From: Nitrosomonas sp.
GTDB lineage: Bacteria; Pseudomonadota; Gammaproteobacteria; Burkholderiales; Nitrosomonadaceae
Assembly (NCBI GenBank): GCA_019635215.1
Contig: JAHBZZ010000010.1
Coordinates: 29,516-93,515 of the forward strand
Length of the DNA stretch: 64,000 nt
Direction of reading: 5' to 3'
Under the pieces are notes generated by a model. That model did not search any database. It had not been told where the DNA came from and was given only the letters and a program-made list of their open reading frames with translations. A program made the position numbers and the translations under genes. This document shows positions 12,501 to 20,470 of this stretch, piece after piece. Positions within the stretch are counted from its first letter, which is position 1. Every line of letters starts with the position of its first letter.

Positions 12501-15317
12501 ATGATTAACACAGTCGACGCCCAATCCCGCCAGGTGCTCGAAAAAGCTCTGTTGTTCAGTCGTTACATGCAACGTACACTAAACGGCAATCCGGCGGATA
12601 AAGTCATTCTGCTGCAACATCTGGAAAAAGCGTTTCAGTATGATGACATGGAATATTTTCTGCGGGATCGCAGCCCATCCATCAAACAGGAAACCGATCT
12701 CAACCACGTACTCCGGCAACTGCGAAAGCACGTCATGCTCAGGACAATCACCCGTGATATCGGCGGACTCGCCGATCTCGCCGAAGTCATGTCCACCATG
12801 ACCGATCTCGCTGAAATCAGCATCCAGTCTTCCCTGCAACATCATTACCACTGGCTCGCCGAACTCGGCCGTTTCGGCTTTCCGGTCGGCAAAGCCAGCA
12901 AGAAACAGCAACCGCTGCTGGTGGTCGCCATGGGTAAGCTGGGTGGACGCGAACTCAATGTTTCCTCAGATATCGACCTGATTTTTGTTTATCCGGAAGA
13001 TGGTGAAACCAACGGAAAAAAAACGATTTCCAATCATGAATTCTTCGCGCGCCTCGGACGAAAACTGATCGCAAGCTTAAACGACTACACCGTTGACGGT
13101 TATGTCTTCAGGGTCGATATGCGATTGCGGCCGCATGGCGAAAACAGCCCGCTGGCCATCAGCTTTGACATGCTCGATGACTATTTCAAAACCCAAGGGC
13201 GCGAATGGGAACGCCACGCTTGGATCAAAGGACGTGTGGTCGCCGGATCGGCTGAAACTGAAGACGAATCCCGCTTAATGGAACAAATCGTCAGGCCGTT
13301 CGTGTTCCGCAAATACCTTGATTTCGATGCTTATGAAGCGATGCGCCGTTTGCATATGCAACTGAGAAAAGAAGTCGAGCGGCGTGAAATGCATGACAAC
13401 ATCAAACTGGGCCCGGGCGGTATCCGTGAAATTGAATTCGTCACGCAGGTGTTCCAGCTGATACGCGGCGGACGCGATGTTGACCTGTGCATCCGGCCAA
13501 CACTGGAAGTATTGCAATGCTTGCAGAAAAAACAGCAGTTGCCGCACCAGACCGTCACAGAACTGGTGGAGGCCTACTATTTCCTACGCACACTGGAGCA
13601 CCGCCTGCAATACCTCGATGACCAGCAAACCCAGACACTGCCCGGAAACCCGGATGACCAGGGCCGCATCGCCATAGCCATGGGCTTCCAGGATTACGAC
13701 CGTTTTATGCATCATCTGGATGTACACCGCATGAATGTCACACATCACTTTGAATTCATTCTTGCAGCCCCGAAAAAATCACCCGCACATGATGTACTGT
13801 CGCCACTCTGGCAAACCCAGACGCATGATGCGGCCCAGACAGAAGCGGCGACATCGCAGCTCAGCACCCTGGGTTTTGCGGAACCCGTCAAAATCTCCGG
13901 CCGGCTGCAACAATTCTACCAAAGTCACTTTTATCACCAACTGCCGGAATCCAGTCAGCAAAAAATCGATATGCTCATGCCCGTACTGGTTGAAGTGATT
14001 GCCCGGTTCCCACCGGTTGAAATCACACTCGAGCGCATGCTGAAATTACTGGAAATCGTCAGTGCACAGCAATCTTCACCGGCATCGTATCTGACGCTGC
14101 TGCTGGAACACCCCGACACATTGCCGCGCGTCGCGAAACTGATCAGCATCAGCCAGTGGGCCAGCGATTATCTGGGCAGGCACCCCATTCTGCTGGACGA
14201 ACTGCTGCGGCACAAAGAACCCAATCCCCTGCCGGACTGGAACGCACTCAAGCATGAACTGCTCGATCAGCTCAACCACGTCAATAAACCGAAAAGTGAC
14301 GTTATCGGATGGCAAATGGACCATTTACGCCATTTCCAGCACGCGCAGGTCTTTCAACTGCTGGTCAGCGACCTTGAAGGCGTCATGCAACTGGAAACGC
14401 TGAGCGACCACCTGACCGCACTGGCGGATCTGATTCTGGAAACCGTTCTCGACCTGGCCTGGAGCGGATTACGCAAACAGCACCGCAACAAGCCGCAACT
14501 GGCCATCATCGGCTATGGCAAACTGGGCGGCAAGGAACTGGGCTACGCTTCCGATCTGGATATTATCTTTCTCCATGATGATCATCACCCGGACGCACCG
14601 GAAAATTACGCCCGGCTCGCGCAAAGTATCAATGTGTGGCTGAACAGCCATACCTCGGCGGGCCTGCTCTATGCCACCGATCTGCGGCTGCGTCCGAATG
14701 GCAACAGCGGATTACTGGTGCATTCCATCGAAGCCTTTGCGCAATACCAGCGCAGTCAGGCCTGGGTCTGGGAACACCAGGCATTGACCCGTGCGCGATT
14801 TGTCGCCGGCGATCCTGTCGCAGGCCAGGCATTTGAATCCACCCGCAAGGAAATTCTTTGCCAGGCGCGCGATTTAAAAAAACTCAAGCAGGAGATCCTC
14901 GCCATGCGTGAAAAAATGCGCGATGCACATCCCCACCCGAATTCAAGTCCGGCCACCTTGTTCGATATCAAACACGACCGTGGCGGCATTATCGATGTCG
15001 AATTCATCGTACAATACCTCGTTCTGGGATTCGCACACCGGCATCCTGAATTGACCGACAATATCGGCAACATCGCACTGCTGAAACTGGCGGCCGAGTT
15101 AGGACTGATTACGTCACAAAGTGCCGAAAATTGTCGCATCGCCTACCGTGAATACCGGCGTACCCAGCACCGCCAGCGCCTCAACAGCGACAGCGGATTA
15201 TCGGGAGAAAACATTGCCGATCATGCAACACTGGCATTTACCGAAGCGGAAAAACAGCACCTGAAAGACGGCCGCACGGCAGTCATCCGGCTATGGGAAG
15301 AAGTGTTCAGCGATTAA
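12501..15317 (+). CDS. glnE: Glutamine synthetase adenylyltransferase/adenylyl-removing enzyme
   Basis: Two nucleotidyltransferase domains (MGKLGGRELNVSSDIDL and YGKLGGKELGYASDLD); WERHAW/WEHQAL; KLGPGGIREIEF. Confidence 0.97.
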   Translation: MINTVDAQSRQVLEKALLFSRYMQRTLNGNPADKVILLQHLEKAFQYDDMEYFLRDRSPSIKQETDLNHVLRQLRKHVMLRTITRDIGGLADLAEVMSTMTDLAEISIQSSLQHHYHWLAELGRFGFPVGKASKKQQPLLVVAMGKLGGRELNVSSDIDLIFVYPEDGETNGKKTISNHEFFARLGRKLIASLNDYTVDGYVFRVDMRLRPHGENSPLAISFDMLDDYFKTQGREWERHAWIKGRVVAGSAETEDESRLMEQIVRPFVFRKYLDFDAYEAMRRLHMQLRKEVERREMHDNIKLGPGGIREIEFVTQVFQLIRGGRDVDLCIRPTLEVLQCLQKKQQLPHQTVTELVEAYYFLRTLEHRLQYLDDQQTQTLPGNPDDQGRIAIAMGFQDYDRFMHHLDVHRMNVTHHFEFILAAPKKSPAHDVLSPLWQTQTHDAAQTEAATSQLSTLGFAEPVKISGRLQQFYQSHFYHQLPESSQQKIDMLMPVLVEVIARFPPVEITLERMLKLLEIVSAQQSSPASYLTLLLEHPDTLPRVAKLISISQWASDYLGRHPILLDELLRHKEPNPLPDWNALKHELLDQLNHVNKPKSDVIGWQMDHLRHFQHAQVFQLLVSDLEGVMQLETLSDHLTALADLILETVLDLAWSGLRKQHRNKPQLAIIGYGKLGGKELGYASDLDIIFLHDDHHPDAPENYARLAQSINVWLNSHTSAGLLYATDLRLRPNGNSGLLVHSIEAFAQYQRSQAWVWEHQALTRARFVAGDPVAGQAFESTRKEILCQARDLKKLKQEILAMREKMRDAHPHPNSSPATLFDIKHDRGGIIDVEFIVQYLVLGFAHRHPELTDNIGNIALLKLAAELGLITSQSAENCRIAYREYRRTQHRQRLNSDSGLSGENIADHATLAFTEAEKQHLKDGRTAVIRLWEEVFSD

Positions 15318-15362
15318 CGAAAGTAGCGAAAAAACAGTGCATAAACGATTATTCTAGAATTT

Positions 15363-15378
15363 TGGCATGATTCATGCT
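15363..15378 (+). promoter_or_regulatory. Sigma-54 -24/-12 promoter of the pilin gene
   Basis: TGGCATGATTCATGCT has GG and GC at the exact sigma-54 spacing, 55 nt upstream of the pilin ATG; type IV pilin genes are commonly RpoN-dependent. Confidence 0.7.
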
Positions 15379-15433
15379 TAAAGAATAAATACACACACTC
15401 AGTGTGTAATGATTAACTTTTAGGAGACTAAAC

Positions 15434-15892
15434 ATGCAAAAAACACAAAAGGGTTTTACATTAATCGAGTTGATGATCGTCGTGGCGATTATTGGTATTC
15501 TGGCTGCGATCGCAGTGCCTGCTTATCAAAACTATACTCTGAGAGCACGCTTTACTGAAGTCGTAAATGCAACTGCTCCTTATAAAACCGCTGTCGAAAT
15601 ATGCTTCCAGACAGGTCCCTGTAATAATGCCGGCACTGCCGTTCAAGTTCTCGCTACAGGTGCAACACGAGCACCGACAGGTGTACCCAACGATCTTGCC
15701 GGACCAGTGGGCGGGGTTCAATCTGTTGCTGTTGGCCTTACCGGAATTATAACGGCCACTCCAGTTGCTGCTAACGGTATTCAAGCCGCCGACACCTACA
15801 TCATTACACCGACAATAACAGGAAACTCACTGACTTGGGCAGTTTCTGGCGGATGCCAAGCAGCTGCAAGCACTGGTAGTCCTATTTGCTAG
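15434..15892 (+). CDS. pilA: Type IVa major pilin
   Basis: Short leader [26 protein letters not shown]; C-terminal Cys pair; AGGAGA ribosome-binding site. Confidence 0.93.
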
Positions 15893-15898
15893 CCCGCG

Positions 15899-15997
15899 AT
15901 CGGGTCGGGATGATGGGGTTTTGCCCATCACCTCTCCCACACCACCGGACATGCGGTTTCGGCTTCGCCGATACGCCGCATTCCGCATCCGGCGGTT
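15899..15997 (-). mobile_element. Group IIC intron 3' remnant (domains V and VI); no RT ORF
   Basis: Minus strand reads AACCGCCGGATGCGG..CCGCATGTCCGGTGGT (CGC triad), then GTGGGAGAGGTGATGGG CAAAA CCCCATCATCCCGACCCGAT (DVI with bulged A and AT end). Confidence 0.85.
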
Positions 15998-16027
15998 GAA
16001 CCGGGTGACTTACCGCGTACCACGCAT

Positions 16028-16058
16028 GCCCGATTACCTTCACGTAATCGGGCTTTTT
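16028..16058 (+). terminator. Perfect 10-bp hairpin plus T-tract (likely pilA terminator; second copy at 17368-17398 after parE)
   Basis: GCCCGATTAC-CTTCAC-GTAATCGGGC followed by TTTTT. Confidence 0.7.
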
Positions 16059-16136
16059 CTTTCCCGGCTCCACCCATTCCCCACATCCCGCATTCGGGGT
16101 CATTGCCACATTCCCCGCGTAACATTCAGCGCACTT

Positions 16137-16220
16137 TGTCATTCCGAGCAATGCGAGGAATCTTGGGTTTTGGGCGCATGAATAAACGCTCAAGATTTCT
16201 CGCTGCCGCTCGAAATGACA
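16137..16220. repeat. 84 bp imperfect palindrome TGTCATTCCGAGC...GCTCGAAATGACA (second copy at 17575-17658)
   Basis: ~29-bp arms pair with few mismatches; resembles the widespread GTCATTCC...GAATGAC intergenic palindromes. Confidence 0.8.
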
Positions 16221-16246
16221 GCATAATCAAACGCCCTGTCAAATAA

Positions 16247-16405
16247 GGAGCCGTGAAAGAATAAGTGTGACAATTGAGCGCGTCTGGCTGGATGCAATGC
16301 AAGACGAGAGGAGGAGTCATAGCACAAGCTATGGCGACGACGAACAACGCCGCAGTGTGCCTGCCAGATGTGATTCAAGTGTTACAGTTATTTATGAACG
16401 GCTCC
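16247..16405. mobile_element. 159 bp MITE (second copy at 17685-17843)
   Basis: Terminal inverted repeats GGAGCCGT../..ACGGCTCC extend imperfectly to ~25 bp; TAA on both flanks (candidate target-site duplication); no coding capacity. Confidence 0.75.
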
Positions 16406-16543
16406 TAAGGCTGAATAGTTACTTCCCCGCAACCTCACGCATAACAAACGCCACTCCCTTCATTCAAATCCGGACACCTCAATATTGGCAACACTGAGCG
16501 GAAGCATAAGTCCGGATAGATTGCCGCACCAATTATCCCGCTT

Positions 16544-16683
16544 AGAGACCTTTGCACGGTGTCATGAGCGGTGCGAGAATAAGGCAAAAATTTGTGAAAA
16601 AGCGGAGTTTCAGGGTAAATGAGCATTTTTCACAAATTTTTAATGCCATTATCGTGCCGCGTAGTAACCGTGCGAAGGTCTCT
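16544..16683. mobile_element. 140 bp MITE with IS5-family-like ends
   Basis: AGAGACCTTTGCACGGT / ACCGTGCGAAGGTCTCT inverted ends; inner AAAAATTTGTGAAAAA/TTTTTCACAAATTTTT hairpin; CTT on both flanks. Confidence 0.8.
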
Positions 16684-16763
16684 CTTAGATTATTTCCTTG
16701 GCATGCATACCAATCTTTGGTAAATTATAAGGAAGGAAGACAATATTTTGGAAAGGTTAGAAA

Positions 16764-17003
16764 ATGGCCAAAAATACCAGTGTTTCGCTTGGCGATCATT
16801 TTGAGACTTTCGTTGATGAACGGGTCAAGGCGGGGCGCTATGCTTCAGCAAGTGATGCCGTGCGCGCAGGACTCAGACTTCTGGAACAGGAGGAAACCAG
16901 ACTGGAGGCATTACGCGCTGCCCTTATCAAAGGTGAGGAAAGCGGTATTGCCGAGGACTACGACATTGAGACCATACAGCGTGAGCTTGATAGTGAAGAA
17001 TAA
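16764..17003 (+). CDS. parD: ParD-family (RHH) antitoxin
   Basis: NTSVSLG...[18 protein letters not shown]...[12 protein letters not shown]; TAATG overlap with parE; upstream operator-like TACCAA-TCT-TTGGTA at 16708-16722. Confidence 0.92.
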
Positions 17004-17308
17004 TGCGCTTTAAGGTTTCAAAAGAAGCGCGGGACGATATACGCAAAATTGGCCGTTACACGCAACGCAAATGGGGCAAGGATCAACGCCAGAATTATTT
17101 AAACGATCTGGATAAAAAATTCGGTTTACTTGCAGAAAACCCTCTTCTGGGTCGTCGCTGCGACAGTATCAGAGAAGGATATTTCCGGTTTGAATATGTC
17201 AGCCACGTTATTTTTTACAGGCAGGAAAAAGACTTTATCGTTATTTCCCGTGTCATACACCAAAGCCGCGATGTAAAGGCGTTACTCGGTGAAACAGGCA
17301 AGACGTGA
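17003..17308 (+). CDS. parE: ParE-family toxin
   Basis: SKEARDDIRKIGRYTQRKWG...LAENPLLGR...GYFRF...HVIFY...RVIHQSRD; translationally coupled to parD. Confidence 0.92.
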   Translation: MRFKVSKEARDDIRKIGRYTQRKWGKDQRQNYLNDLDKKFGLLAENPLLGRRCDSIREGYFRFEYVSHVIFYRQEKDFIVISRVIHQSRDVKALLGETGKT

Positions 17309-17351
17309 ACAACGCCTTGAACAACTCGAAACTCAGCGCCGGGAACTAGGC

Positions 17352-17981
17352 ACCGCGTACCACGCATGCCCGATTACCTTCGCGTAATCGGGCTTTTTCT
17401 TTCCCGGCTCCACCCATTCCCCACATCCCGCACGCTAACTTCCGGGCTTTCATGTCACACCATAACGCCGGATTACGCTTCGCCAACCCGGCCTGCCGTT
17501 TTTTTCTTTATCGATACGCCACATCCCGCATTCGGAGGCATTGCCACATTCCCCGCGTAACATTCAGCGCACTTTGTCATTCCGAGCAATGCGAGGAATC
17601 TTGGGTTTTGGGCGCATGAATAAACGCTCAAGATTTCTCGCTGCCGCTCGAAATGACAGCATAATCAAACGCCCTGTCAAATAAGGAGCCGTGAAAGAAT
17701 AAGTGTGACAATTGAGCGCGTCTGGCTGGATGCAATGCAAGACGAGAGGAGGAGTCATAGCACAAGCTATGGCGACGACGAACAACGCCGCAGTGTGCCT
17801 GCCAGATGTGATTCAAGTGTTACAGTTATTTATGAACGGCTCCTAAGGCTGAATAGTTACTTCCCCGCAACCTCACGCATAACAAACGCCACTCCCTTCA
17901 TTCAAATCCGGACACCTCAATATTGGCAACACTGAGCGGAAGCATAAGTCCGGATAGATTGCCGCACCAATTATCCCGCTT
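17352..17981 (+). repeat. Direct repeat copy 2 (630 bp; carries a 98 bp insertion at 17433-17530)
   Basis: Matches 16012-16543; the insertion is bounded by a duplicated CCACATCCCGCA and contains a REP-like hairpin. Confidence 0.97.
17463..17496 (-). repeat. REP-like hairpin (GCAG-GCCGGGTT-GGCGAAGCGT-AATCCGGC)
   Basis: Same architecture as the REPs at 18711 and 19153. Confidence 0.7.
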
Positions 17982-18015
17982 GGTGTTTAACGTATGTCGT
18001 TATACAATTAACAGT

Positions 18016-18297
18016 ATGATCAAGACTTTCGCCACGAAGGAAACGGCTGCGGTGTTTGCCAGTGAAAAGGTTAGGAGACTTCCGCCAGAGATCCTTCAGG
18101 TTGCGCGTCGGAAATTGGCACAGCTGCATCGTGTTTCTTCTATTGAAGAACTGCGCATTCCACCCGGGAACAGACTTGAAAAATTGTCTTCTAACCGGGA
18201 TGGACAGTGGAGTATCCGCGTCAATGACCAATGGCGAATTTGTTTCCGATTCGAGGCAGGCGACGCATTTGACGTCGAGATTATTGATTACCATTGA
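18016..18297 (+). CDS. higB: HigB-family toxin (RelE/ParE superfamily)
   Basis: MIKTF..., LRIPPGNRLEKL and GQWSIRVNDQWRICF; lies upstream of its antitoxin; operator-like TAACG-N5-CGTTA at 17988-18002. ORF track start 17923 is probably too early. Confidence 0.93.
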   Translation: MIKTFATKETAAVFASEKVRRLPPEILQVARRKLAQLHRVSSIEELRIPPGNRLEKLSSNRDGQWSIRVNDQWRICFRFEAGDAFDVEIIDYH

Positions 18298-18309
18298 GAG
18301 GCAACTGTT

Positions 18310-18681
18310 ATGACTATTCGTATCGAAGAACTGGAGCACATGGATTTCAGCGATGTCGCTGAAGGTGGAAAGCTGCATCCTATTCACCCCGGTGAGATTC
18401 TGCGAGAGGAATTTCTCGTTCCGTTGAAGATTACTCCCCATGCACTTTCTCTGGCGCTGCAGATTCCTGCTACACGTATTAACGATATCGTGCTGGAACG
18501 CCGTGCAATTACTACCGATACTGCTCTGAGACTGGCCCGATATTTTGGCAATACCGCTGAATTCTGGATGGGGCTTCAAGTGGACTACGATATGGCTATC
18601 GCCCGAAATTCCTTGCAGGATACATTGGATAGGATTCAACGATTTGTGCCCGCTAATGTGAGCCCGCGTAGGTCCGATTAG
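18310..18681 (+). CDS. higA: HigA-family XRE-HTH antitoxin
   Basis: PIHPGEILREEFL, RINDIV, AITTDTALRLARYFGNTAEFWMGLQ and YD motifs. Confidence 0.93.
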   Translation: MTIRIEELEHMDFSDVAEGGKLHPIHPGEILREEFLVPLKITPHALSLALQIPATRINDIVLERRAITTDTALRLARYFGNTAEFWMGLQVDYDMAIARNSLQDTLDRIQRFVPANVSPRRSD

Positions 18682-18745
18682 CTTTGCGTAACCGGGCTTC
18701 GTATTAGCTTTAATGTCGGGTTATACTTCGCTCAACCCGACCTAC
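18668..18745. repeat. Pair of oppositely oriented GTAG-type REP hairpins (18668-18697 on +, 18711-18745 on -)
   Basis: GTAG-GTCCGATTA..TAACCGGGC and, on the minus strand, GTAG-GTCGGGTT-GAGCGAAGTAT-AACCCGAC. Confidence 0.75.
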
Positions 18746-18761
18746 CCCCACCCACCCCGAT

Positions 18762-18800
18762 AATGGCGAAGAACCGTTCAGAATCCAGCCGCTTCAATAG
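18762..18800 (+). pseudogene. C-terminal remnant of a DUF4160-like protein (NGEEPFRIQPLQ*)
   Basis: 12 codons ending 11 nt before the DUF2442 ATG, with the stop overlapping the RBS; resembles the end of DUF4160, the usual upstream partner of DUF2442; no start codon remains. Confidence 0.6.
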
Positions 18801-18811
18801 GAGATTGAATC

Positions 18812-19102
18812 ATGTATCCATCAGTAAAGCATGTTGTACCCGCTGAAGATTACACGCTCTCTATCGACTTCGATAACGGCGAACGCGGTACTTTGGATAT
18901 GAAGCCATTTCTGGATTTTGGTGTTTTTCAGCGGCTAAAGGATCGCGCGGCCTTCAATCGGGTGCGGGTAGTCTTTGATACCGTCGAATGGGATACAGGA
19001 ATAGATTTAGACCCCGAATTTGTTTACCGTAAATGCCGGTTATTGAATACACAACAAAGCGATGCGCCGACACACATATCCGAATCTGCAAAGCCCGCGT
19101 AA
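18812..19102 (+). CDS. DUF2442-family protein (putative TA component)
   Basis: V..VVPAEDYTLSIDFDNGE...D...F..LKD...F..VRV...TVEW..GIDLDPE.VY pattern; AGGAG RBS. Confidence 0.85.
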   Translation: MYPSVKHVVPAEDYTLSIDFDNGERGTLDMKPFLDFGVFQRLKDRAAFNRVRVVFDTVEWDTGIDLDPEFVYRKCRLLNTQQSDAPTHISESAKPA

Positions 19103-19152
19103 ATGCGGGCATTCGAGTTCGATTTTATCGCGGCAATGCACACCTCATCACG

Positions 19153-19187
19153 TAATGTCGGGTTACGCTTCGCTCAACCCGACCCAC
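19153..19187 (-). repeat. REP hairpin; direct repeat of 18711-18745
   Basis: TAATGTCGGGTTACGCTTCGCTCAACCCGACCCAC versus TAATGTCGGGTTATACTTCGCTCAACCCGACCTAC (3 mismatches). Confidence 0.8.
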
Positions 19188-19408
19188 CCCAACTATTCCA
19201 ACTTAAGCTTTACAATTTCCCATTCCTTTTCCTCTAGCTGGAAAAAGGAGCGGTCATCACCGATCGGCCATTTGCCGCCGGTTACAAAATTGTCAATATA
19301 CGGCATGGTCATTCGCTGGTAATATAGCGCTTTTGAAACGGCTGGATCCGTGTGCTTTTTGGCTCGATTGTTCCTCCGGATAATAATAAAACACTGATAT
19401 ATACGTTA

Positions 19409-20470
19409 ATGACAACGCTCAAGAATGACACTTTTTTGCGGGCTTTATTGAAACAACCTGTTGAATATACCCCCGTGTGGATGATGCGCCAGGCGGGACG
19501 TTATCTGGCTGAATACAATGCAACCCGCGCACGCGCCGGTGATTTTCTGACCTTGTGCAAAACCCCGGCGCTGGCGACAGAAGTGACGCTGCAGCCCTTG
19601 GAACGTTTTCCCTTGGATGCCGCGATTTTATTTTCCGATATCCTGACGATTCCCGATGCAATGGGTCTCGGGTTGCGTTTCGCACAAGGCGAAGGCCCGA
19701 TGTTCGAAAGGCCCCTGAAAGACGAAAAAGCGATTCATGCGCTCAGAGTACCCGATCCGGCCACCGATTTGCGCTATGTGATGGATGCCGTGGCGGAAAT
19801 CCGCAAAGCACTGGATAACCGCGTGCCGTTGATCGGCTTTTCAGGCAGCCCTTTCACGCTGGCCTGTTATATGGTGGAAGGACGCGGCGGCACCGATTTC
19901 CGTGATATCAAGACAATGCTGTACAACCGGCCCGATTTATTACACCGGATACTGGATAAAAACGCACAGGCTGTGACGGCATACCTGAACGCGCAGATCG
20001 AATCGGGCGCACAGGCCGTCATGATTTTTGACACCTGGGGTGGTGCGTTGTCGCATTCCGCCTATCAGGAGTTTTCCCTGAACTATATGCGGCAAATTAT
20101 TGCCGGCATTACGCGGGAAAAGAACAATACGCGTATTCCCAGTATCGTATTCACCAAGGGGGGCGGTTTATGGCTGGAAGCGATCGCGGCTATCGGCTGC
20201 GATGCGGTAGGCCTGGATTGGACGATCGACATCGGCGATGCGCGCCGCCGCGTGGGTGATAAAGTGGCCCTGCAGGGCAATCTCGATCCTTCGATACTCT
20301 TTGCCTCACCCGAGGTGATCACGAAGGAAGCGGAAAAAATACTGACAAGCTACGGTCATGGTTCCGGTCATGTATTTAACCTGGGTCATGGCATATCCCA
20401 GTTTACCCCACCGGAAAATGCCGCCGCACTGATTGAAGCGGTTCACACACTGAGCCGCAAATTTCATTAA
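19409..20470 (+). CDS. hemE: Uroporphyrinogen decarboxylase
   Basis: [32 protein letters not shown] and FNLGHG motifs; likely start ATG at 19409 (track: 19352). Confidence 0.97.

Follow-up and report, generated by a model that had tools for sequence, protein, structure and literature searches.

Repetitive extragenic palindromes (REPs), the paired REPs known as REPINs, the REP-associated tyrosine transposases (RAYTs) and REPtrons, in which a RAYT gene is flanked by its REPs, are well described; they are usually abundant, cargo-free and vertically inherited, and their function is unclear. REPs with a GTAG tag usually exceed 100 copies per genome. In Neisseria, minimal mobile elements and intergenic mosaic elements are strain-variable cassettes between conserved genes, which lack a recombinase and are moved by homologous exchange, with short inverted repeats spaced along the arrays. 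PMC3733652 describes GTAG REPs as sitting at the 3' ends of genes, where they can supply stop codons, and the reiteration of REPs with flanking DNA as a feature of REP clusters. According to PMC3184786, which cites Mine et al. 2009, the folA-apaH spacer of Escherichia coli holds the ccdO157 toxin-antitoxin (TA) module or, in other strains, a REP, and REPs are proposed to provide plasticity. PMC13617665 describes a ParE/RelE operon in Photorhabdus that lies between two copies of a 24-bp palindrome; the empty site has one copy, and no mobility gene is present at the locus. We analyzed a stretch of 64,000 nucleotides (the window; C2:29516-93515) of a 3.39-Mb Nitrosomonas genome in 46 contigs, and here describe its pilA-hemE interval (the island), in which all genes lie on the + strand. 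Comparison with relatives indicates that this interval is a worn-down home locus of a small REP hairpin family, from which the RAYT gene has been lost in this genome.

Positions are window coordinates, and C1, C2, C43 and similar labels denote contigs of this genome, G000. Its nearest named relatives are Nitrosomonas metagenome-assembled genomes and N. oligotropha; the closest relative is G003, whose hemE protein is 95% identical. Among the sequences of relatives, L011 is G166, L110 lies in G178, L111 is G150:C6 and L113 is G003:C128. Gene families were assigned with Pfam and NCBIfam.

The hairpins of the island are GTAG-tagged REPs arranged in inverted doublets. Alignment of all copies gave a type A consensus of (AGCCCGC)GTAG followed by GCCCGATTAGCTTTGCGTAATCGGGC, and a type B consensus of GTCGGGTTACGCTTCGCTCAACCCGAC followed by CTAC, i.e., a GTAG-tagged palindrome on the other strand. 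Type A, a 15-45-nt spacer and type B together form an inverted doublet resembling a REPIN or the unit of a bacterial interspersed mosaic element (BIME); such doublets occur in the window and on C1, C12 and C44, and also in L010, L011 and L110. The palindromes measure 26-29 nt, and the two best type A copies fold as single strands with z = -3.7 to -5.8. Of 11 aligned copies, 8 have the tag immediately 5' of hairpin A, either as exact GTAG (three copies: window 18668, C43:47358, C43:60017) or with one base changed (GTAA, ATAG, GAAG, GCAG), and CTAC lies 3' of hairpin B. In the type A hairpins at 16028 and 17368, GCAT stands in place of GTAG; a T-run comes after both, and they score as terminator-like. 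Doublets or their remains were found 3' of E123, a structured element next to pilA (A 16028), parE (A 17368, C 17465), higA (A 18672, B 18713) and DUF2442 (A' ~19092, B 19155). The stop codon of higA lies within its hairpin A, and that of DUF2442 is supplied by the degenerate REP-A. Profile searches (nhmmer) gave approximately 19 type A and 8 type B copies (~27 in total) at 13 loci of the genome, which is not the number of a high-copy GTAG REP or REPIN family, and a pattern search of 81 sampled genomes of the genus detected the family in 8 of them, at 1-15 matches per genome. Therefore, this is a genuine but unusually small REP family.

We located the RAYT genes of relatives by a RAYT protein search of the genus. 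In G178, the island between glnE-pilA and hemE-response regulator contains an intact RAYT gene (L110 5032-5562; NF047646, 203 bits) with A/B doublets on both sides, together with intact DUF4160-DUF2442, MITE2 with parDE (MITE, miniature inverted-repeat transposable element) and a RAYT pseudogene beside hemE. G003 retains a C-terminal RAYT relic beside hemE, and in G150 an ortholog of the G178 RAYT gene, at 85% identity, adjoins pilA together with a REP-A array of 260-bp spacing. In that array (L111 2980-4575), seven REP-A copies recur at an exact 260-bp period beside RAYT and pilA, a tandem of REP and flanking DNA. A RAYT flanked by its REPs was thus found in G178 and, beside pilA, in G150, and not in the window, where tblastn with five RAYT proteins over 15000-20000 detected no RAYT relic and no island open reading frame (ORF) resembled an integrase, transposase or reverse transcriptase (RT). 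The window is therefore a remnant rather than a REPtron member and, because RAYT genes or relics occupy this locus in G178, G003 and G150, the island is what is left of a REPtron after the loss of its RAYT.

The two intact RAYT genes of this genome (C43:49250-49876 and C34:88935-89459; NF047646, ~195-200 bits) are immediately flanked by private GTAG hairpins and not by REP-A. The C43 protein was considered as the cognate enzyme and rejected, having a different private hairpin and only 51% identity to the REP-A-flanked RAYT of G178 and G150; the C34 protein is 65% identical to the G178 island RAYT. The cognate RAYT appears to be missing from this genome, and the lack of a recombinase in the island is, on this comparison, a recent loss in this genome and not a property of the system. 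The C43 locus (C43:47350-51700) and L113 are an orthologous TA-rich locus whose RAYTs are only 51% identical between the sister genomes, which suggests that RAYT was replaced at a fixed site. A conserved ORF of 93-109 aa with a coiled coil and no clear Pfam family lies beside REP-A or RAYT in three genomes (L010 7895-8176, L120 2544-2834, L111 2027-2356), and other coiled-coil ORFs adjoin the C43 and C128 RAYTs.

The gene content between pilA and hemE differed in all five relatives having the interval; the window, G003, G178, L011 and L010 are all unlike (Table 1). Modules start and stop at REPs, and their order changes within the interval. A second array, between a lipoprotein gene and glgA, behaved in the same way: pairwise homology blocks among four genomes begin and end at REP-A. 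Together, the comparisons indicate that content varies as REP-bounded blocks at two loci.

Next to the REP loci, TA genes were frequent. Further loci in this genome adjoin brnTA (C44) and Gp49/HTH_37 (C1:297 kb), and RelE/Xre, HicAB and YefM genes surround the C43 RAYT, with REP loci adjoining. A Pfam-confirmed TA gene was present within 700 bp of 6/13 REP loci compared with 0/26 random positions (145 ORFs of 55-160 aa, scanned as the REP loci were); by our own arithmetic, Fisher's exact test gives p ~5e-4.

An earlier note, made from the letters of the window, had described the island as TA genes shuffled as cassettes in a scaffold of REPs and MITEs at a REP-rich hotspot, possibly by a RAYT acting in trans or by recombination between repeats, and had asked for the interval to be compared across strains, for REPs to be counted and tested for enrichment beside TA genes, and for a RAYT with the same REPs to be sought. 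The strain comparison at two loci supports the shuffling of REP-bounded TA cassettes, the clustering of the REPs beside TA genes agrees with the proposed enrichment, and the lineage does hold such a RAYT, inside the same island in G178. The copy count showed the REP family to be small rather than abundant, and action in trans is doubtful here, given the divergence and the other private hairpins of the genome's own RAYTs.

The genes between the hairpins were then as follows. ParD/ParE and HigB/HigA are adjacent small genes of known type II TA families, and toxicity, neutralization and addiction are predicted for them from gene family. The higBA module and the segment that carries DUF2442 have counterparts in L011, at 92% (L011 6725-7523) and 86% identity (18762-19102 against L011 7708-8097), respectively. 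Upstream of DUF2442, the codons reading NGEEPFRIQPLQ and a stop are the exact C-terminus of an intact DUF4160 protein (PF13711, 88 bits) encoded upstream of DUF2442 in G178; the truncated partner is therefore real. DUF4160/DUF2442 may be a candidate TA pair at most. DUF2442 is bracketed by 41-nt direct repeats (18711-18751 and 19153-19193) that are 90% identical. The reading of parDE, higBA and DUF2442 with a truncated partner, all on the + strand, each followed by a hairpin, with direct-repeat REPs around DUF2442 and no integrase, transposase or RT gene, was thus correct throughout.

The parDE block (0.65 kb) is 90-97% identical in G003, G134, G126 and G008, and its homology in relatives stops at 16684-16688 and at 17309-17351. 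At 90-94% identity and with the same limits, the block occurs in three genomes without REP-A. In two of these (L092 and L093), it lies 3' of a gene whose last ~90 nt recur after parE, and window 17304-17346 is a relic of that duplicated foreign-gene 3' end. Because the block is present without REPs in genomes lacking REP-A, it came from elsewhere and the REPs are not part of it.

A repeat of ~530 bp in front of the first two modules, likewise reported before, was found as two copies of 532 and 627 bp that flank MITE2 and parDE and share a 463-bp core with 99.6% identity. Copy 1 lacks a 98-nt piece with REP-C, which lies between 12-nt direct repeats. Copy 2 runs straight into higBA, as in L011; its leader, "u", lies directly upstream of higBA in L011 and upstream of MITE2-parDE in G178. 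MITE1, inserted in "u" with an 8-bp target duplication, TTCCCCGC (16111-16118 and 16423-16430), is absent from the otherwise collinear L011 sequence and confined to the two repeat copies, with no other copy in the genome. MITE2 has ~13 full-length copies genome-wide at 86-92% identity (e.g., C11:36469-36610, C23:94251-94391), and repeat copy 1 ends exactly at its start. In G003, MITE2 occupies another site, where an 8-bp target duplication seems to border it (judged from overlapping BLAST blocks), and the repeats around parDE are shorter, ending at window position 16141, the MITE2 insertion point in the second copy of G003. MITE2 marks rearrangement breakpoints of the island here and in G003. 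The ~530-bp unit was considered as a MITE and rejected, since only these two adjacent copies exist in the 3.39-Mb genome, which makes it a local duplication; of the proposed scaffold, the REPs and the dispersed MITE2 stand and this unit does not. The strain comparison indicates that the unit is a very recent duplication of a REP and its flanking DNA, remodelled differently in two sister lineages.

Comparison of the genome with itself gave ten pairs of local direct repeats that measure 60 bp or more and lie 150-4000 bp apart, two of which are parts of the window repeat. Excluding internal gene repeats and a fragment of an insertion sequence (IS), approximately seven were relevant, and four of these bracket TA-like modules: parDE, brnTA, a Zeta-toxin pair and a yefM segment. 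The brnTA structure (C44:27372-28879) has repeats of 378 bp that are 96.8% identical and begin with a REP doublet; at its insertion site in relatives, the kinase gene is only 78% identical and no REPs were found. The Zeta-toxin pair (C23:118186-119189) likewise lies between direct repeats of adjoining sequence, and the repeat-flanked yefM segment (C43:49742-51705) lies beside a duplicated RAYT 5' end; the repeats of these three range over 97-378 bp. Addiction that preserves unstable repeat-flanked inserts is one possible explanation of why such repeats bracket TA genes.

Table 1. Features of the pilA-hemE interval in window coordinates, and orders of elements across strains (island orders in window orientation). 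A, B and C are REP types, A' is a degenerate type A, and u is the leader of the direct repeat.
Feature	Position	Strand	Evidence or order
pilA, type IV pilin, conserved left border	15434-15892	+	PF07963, PF00114; glnE-pilA synteny with L010, L011, G003, G178
E123, structured 119-nt element	15893-16011		Starts with a collapsed REP-A-like hairpin (AGCCCGCG-ATCGGG)
Direct repeat copy 1	16012-16543	+	REP-A (16028-16053, T-run), then u
MITE1, 304-bp insertion in u	16119-16422; second copy 17557-17860		Inverted ends GTAACATTCAGC/GCTGAATAGTTAC
MITE2, 140-bp palindromic element	16544-16683		Right border of repeat copy 1
parDE cassette	16684-17351	+	Pfam; same block in G003, G134, G126, G008
parD	16764-17003	+	PF03693, 110 bits
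parE	17003-17308	+	PF05016, 75 bits
Direct repeat copy 2	17352-17978	+	REP-A (17368-17393), REP-C (17465-17492), u with MITE1
higBA module	18016-18681	+	Similar to L011
higB	18016-18297	+	PF05015, 69 bits
higA	18310-18681	+	TIGR02607, 111 bits
REP doublet after higA	18661-18751	+	GTAG and A (18672-18697), spacer, B (18713-18741) and CTAC
DUF4160 relic, last 12 codons	18762-18799	+	C-terminus of DUF4160
DUF2442 gene, intact	18812-19102	+	PF10387, 57 bits
Degenerate REP-A with REP-B	19092-19193	+	A' (~19092-19117), B (19155-19183)
Type A hairpins	16028-16053, 17368-17393, 18672-18697; degenerate ~19092-19117
Type B hairpins	18713-18741, 19155-19183; variant C 17465-17492
hemE, conserved right border	19421-20470	+	Protein 95% identical in G003
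Island order, window			pilA-E123-A-u-MITE2-parDE-A/C-u-higBA-A/B-(DUF4160 relic)DUF2442-A'/B-hemE
Island order, G003			pilA-E123-A-u1-parDE-A-u1-MITE2-u2-higBA-(RAYT relic)-hemE
Island order, G178			pilA-E123-A-A/B-DUF4160/DUF2442-A/B-RAYT-A/B-u-MITE2-parDE-(RAYT relic)-hemE
Island order, L011 (G166)			pilA-A/B-u-higBA-E123-(DUF4160 relic)DUF2442-A-lipoprotein-hemE
Island order, L010			pilA-A/C-A-93-aa ORF-A/C-higBA-like (opposite strand)-hemE
Island order, G164			pilA-A-hisC
Island order, G116			pilA, then three REPs
Lipoprotein-glgA order, G000			A-mnt-hepT-A/B
Lipoprotein-glgA order, G166			A-mnt-A/B-RHH/ParE-A
Lipoprotein-glgA order, G178			A-parDE2-A/B-RHH-A
Lipoprotein-glgA order, G003			parDE2-A-mnt-A

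We lean, with a little more confidence than doubt, towards REP-bounded shuffling by homologous recombination at a REPtron home locus that has lost its RAYT. The low-copy, GTAG-tagged family belongs to a single Nitrosomonas sub-clade, and pilA-hemE would be its REPtron. REP doublets sit at gene 3' ends, some acting like terminators and some supplying stop codons, and small type II TA modules, presumably addictive, have accumulated between them, each becoming REP-bounded. Because doublets and the leader "u" recur between modules, they would offer 50-600 bp for homologous recombination. Routes open to it would be unequal crossing-over, the re-integration of excised circles by a single crossover, and exchange with the DNA of other strains. 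Through these, modules would be added, deleted, put in a new order or doubled, with REPs at the breakpoints, and the near-identical repeats around MITE2 and parDE would be the footprint of one recent event. We infer that recombination at doublets and linked repeats shuffles the modules while TA addiction keeps repeat-flanked inserts, which would explain why otherwise unstable structures of this kind persist. RAYT catalysis would not be needed in this genome and would probably not be available for this REP family.

Homologous recombination is favored because hundreds of bp of ordinary flanking sequence were copied in the most recent event, in a genome without the cognate RAYT, because breakpoints also coincide with a MITE, and because the parDE block carries no REP elsewhere. 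The nearly identical repeats share a private MITE insertion, and those of G003 are shorter with other breakpoints, which are further signs of it, as is the like repeat-module-repeat layout around brnTA, the Zeta-toxin pair and the yefM segment. Several points weigh against this reading. Recombination is deduced here from strain comparison, site-specific action at REPs would equally put breakpoints at REPs, and REPs, at 26-45 nt, give RecA-dependent recombination little length to act on. The TA activity and addiction of these pairs are predicted from sequence. The TA enrichment was calculated from 13 loci, of which two share a cluster, once the pattern was already known. In addition, a phmmer census found many genomic TA loci without REP-A nearby; its panel was drawn from REP-adjacent modules and is hence biased, and the census was used just for TA loci lacking REP-A.

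As to the agent of the shuffling, the data fit homologous recombination and a RAYT alike. A RAYT would nick at GTAG hairpins and excise or insert REP-bounded single-stranded segments with TA genes as cargo, and the window array would have been frozen after RAYT loss. IS200/IS605 TnpA acts on its end hairpins in like manner. The position of RAYT inside the array in G178 and G150, with the same doublets as flanks, is consistent with such a platform, as are the modules between direct-orientation REPs (DUF2442, 18711/19153; hepT-mnt, C1:60090/61006), the exact start of both long duplications of this genome at the 5' leader of a REP-A, and the embedding of the second RAYT locus (C43) in TA genes. 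However, we consider it unlikely. The cognate RAYT is absent, yet the newest rearrangement is very recent. Y1 transposases give products that run precisely from hairpin to hairpin, whereas each duplicated unit here consists of 378-627 bp of ordinary flanking sequence. Genomes without REP-A have the parDE block too, with no REP at its ends, the orientation of REPs relative to the module varies (opposite at brnTA), and a full-text literature search found no cargo-carrying REPIN. An even bolder proposal is that REP doublets and RAYT form an integron-like gene-capture platform, in which an HUH transposase moves or recruits REP-bounded TA cassettes that in turn stabilize the REPtron. This would explain why both examined RAYT loci are embedded in TA genes and why the REP family lies mainly beside TA genes; we give it little credence.

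It is also conceivable that REPs and TA genes coincide by chance, the REPs being only terminators or mRNA-stabilizing hairpins seeded near RAYT, and the TA modules gathering independently at this permissive intergenic site through recombination in the conserved flanking genes; REPs would then have no role in the shuffling. The REPs lie 0-45 nt from stop codons and two are terminator-like, in keeping with the gene 3' ends and stop codons described in PMC3733652, and PMC3184786 (citing Mine 2009) gives folA-apaH of E. coli as a precedent for TA genes and REPs at a variable spacer. Against this, REPs mark the limits of inter-strain homology blocks at each of two loci, a low-copy REP family is strongly enriched beside TA genes, and the reordering of modules within the interval is not explained by exchange through flanking genes alone. 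The block boundaries and the enrichment make coincidence an improbable account.

E123 called for a separate explanation, as its region 15899-15997 matches RF00029 (group II intron domains V/VI) on the minus strand. If this were the 3' end (domains V, VI) of a group IIC intron, the island could have been shaped by an element type that targets hairpins, and the homologous site of G178 (L110 6636-6727) matches as well. However, both scores (33.6 bits in the window and 32.4 bits in G178) stay below the gathering threshold of RF00029 (40), an insert of 19-26 nt (26 nt in the window) interrupts the domain V loop of these matches, and no match to domains I-IV was found upstream of 15899-15997. The only RT of the genome, a 348-aa ORF on C4 (C4:76600-77172, L009) 3' of two small ORFs, looks, from its sequence, retron-like rather than like an intron maturase, and its locus gave no group II intron RNA match. 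The intron reading was set aside as very improbable. E123 folds with z = -3 to -4, and its start as a REP-like hairpin recurs at the type B position of a REP doublet at C1:297787; its second half is 71% like 17488-17538 (family D3), i.e., the sequence after REP-C. It is kept in four relatives, after pilA in three and after higA in L011 (7536-7657, 84.5% identical). We tentatively read E123 as a decayed REP-derived element.

Finally, a CALIN, i.e., a cluster of attC sites lacking an integron integrase and served here by the integrase encoded elsewhere in the genome, is hardly credible and was rejected: TA cassettes are common in chromosomal integrons and the genome has a true integron (IntI C11:43011-43982; TIGR02249, 491 bits) with a higBA pair among its cassettes, but a covariance model from four of its own attC sites, which does pick up an attC not used to build it (integron locus, E = 0.0024), has no hit in the window or in the islands of G178 and G003 (with filters off, best island score 8.5 bits, E = 1.2, not at a hairpin), where the hairpins carry GTAG tags and not attC R''/R' cores. 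That integron (C11:43011-52000) is itself complete: besides IntI, it has a cassette array whose attC sites are classical and which includes, with the higBA cassette, an IS-like ORF.

The finding has an ordinary side: what looked like a recombinase-less cassette array can be explained as a REPtron minus its enzyme, and the earlier note's suggestion of an undescribed system does not extend to REP/RAYT systems themselves. Beyond this, a small REP family is tied to strain-variable TA rows at two loci, with its RAYT inside one row. If REPs, with or without RAYT, do bound TA exchange, this would be a route for chromosomal TA spread without integrases or transposons, and would also suggest a reason for the persistence of RAYTs and REPs. 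The interest is moderate, and would be much greater if RAYT moves the cassettes. The texts returned by full-text literature searches reported no link of RAYT or REPIN to TA genes, no REP family that largely bounds TA cassettes, no such two-locus arrays and no RAYT in a TA array.

Among known systems, the Neisseria elements differ from the island in repeat families and taxon, and natural competence is not established for Nitrosomonas. A chromosomal integron array shares with it a one-directional row of small, promoter-poor and often TA modules with folded palindromic ends and strain-variable content; the island, however, has neither attC structures nor an IntI at its locus, its inter-module repeats can reach hundreds of bp, and the enzyme linked with it belongs to the HUH/Y1 transposases instead of the tyrosine recombinases. 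The folA-apaH spacer likewise places a TA module in an intergenic site between conserved housekeeping genes, but as a single module at a single site, with no array, resident RAYT or second locus. The Photorhabdus ParE/RelE operon has the same palindrome-TA-palindrome layout with no mobility gene at the locus; its palindrome resembles a Tn3 res site, pointing to a resolvase, whereas the REPs here are GTAG-tagged and linked to RAYT. The island is most like a REPtron or BIME cluster: GTAG imperfect palindromes are extragenic, lie at gene 3' ends in inverted doublets, are reiterated with flanking DNA as described in PMC3733652, and in relatives flank a RAYT (NF047646) in inverted orientation. It differs from a typical REPtron in having ~27 copies rather than hundreds, in few clusters, with TA genes between the doublets and the RAYT lost.

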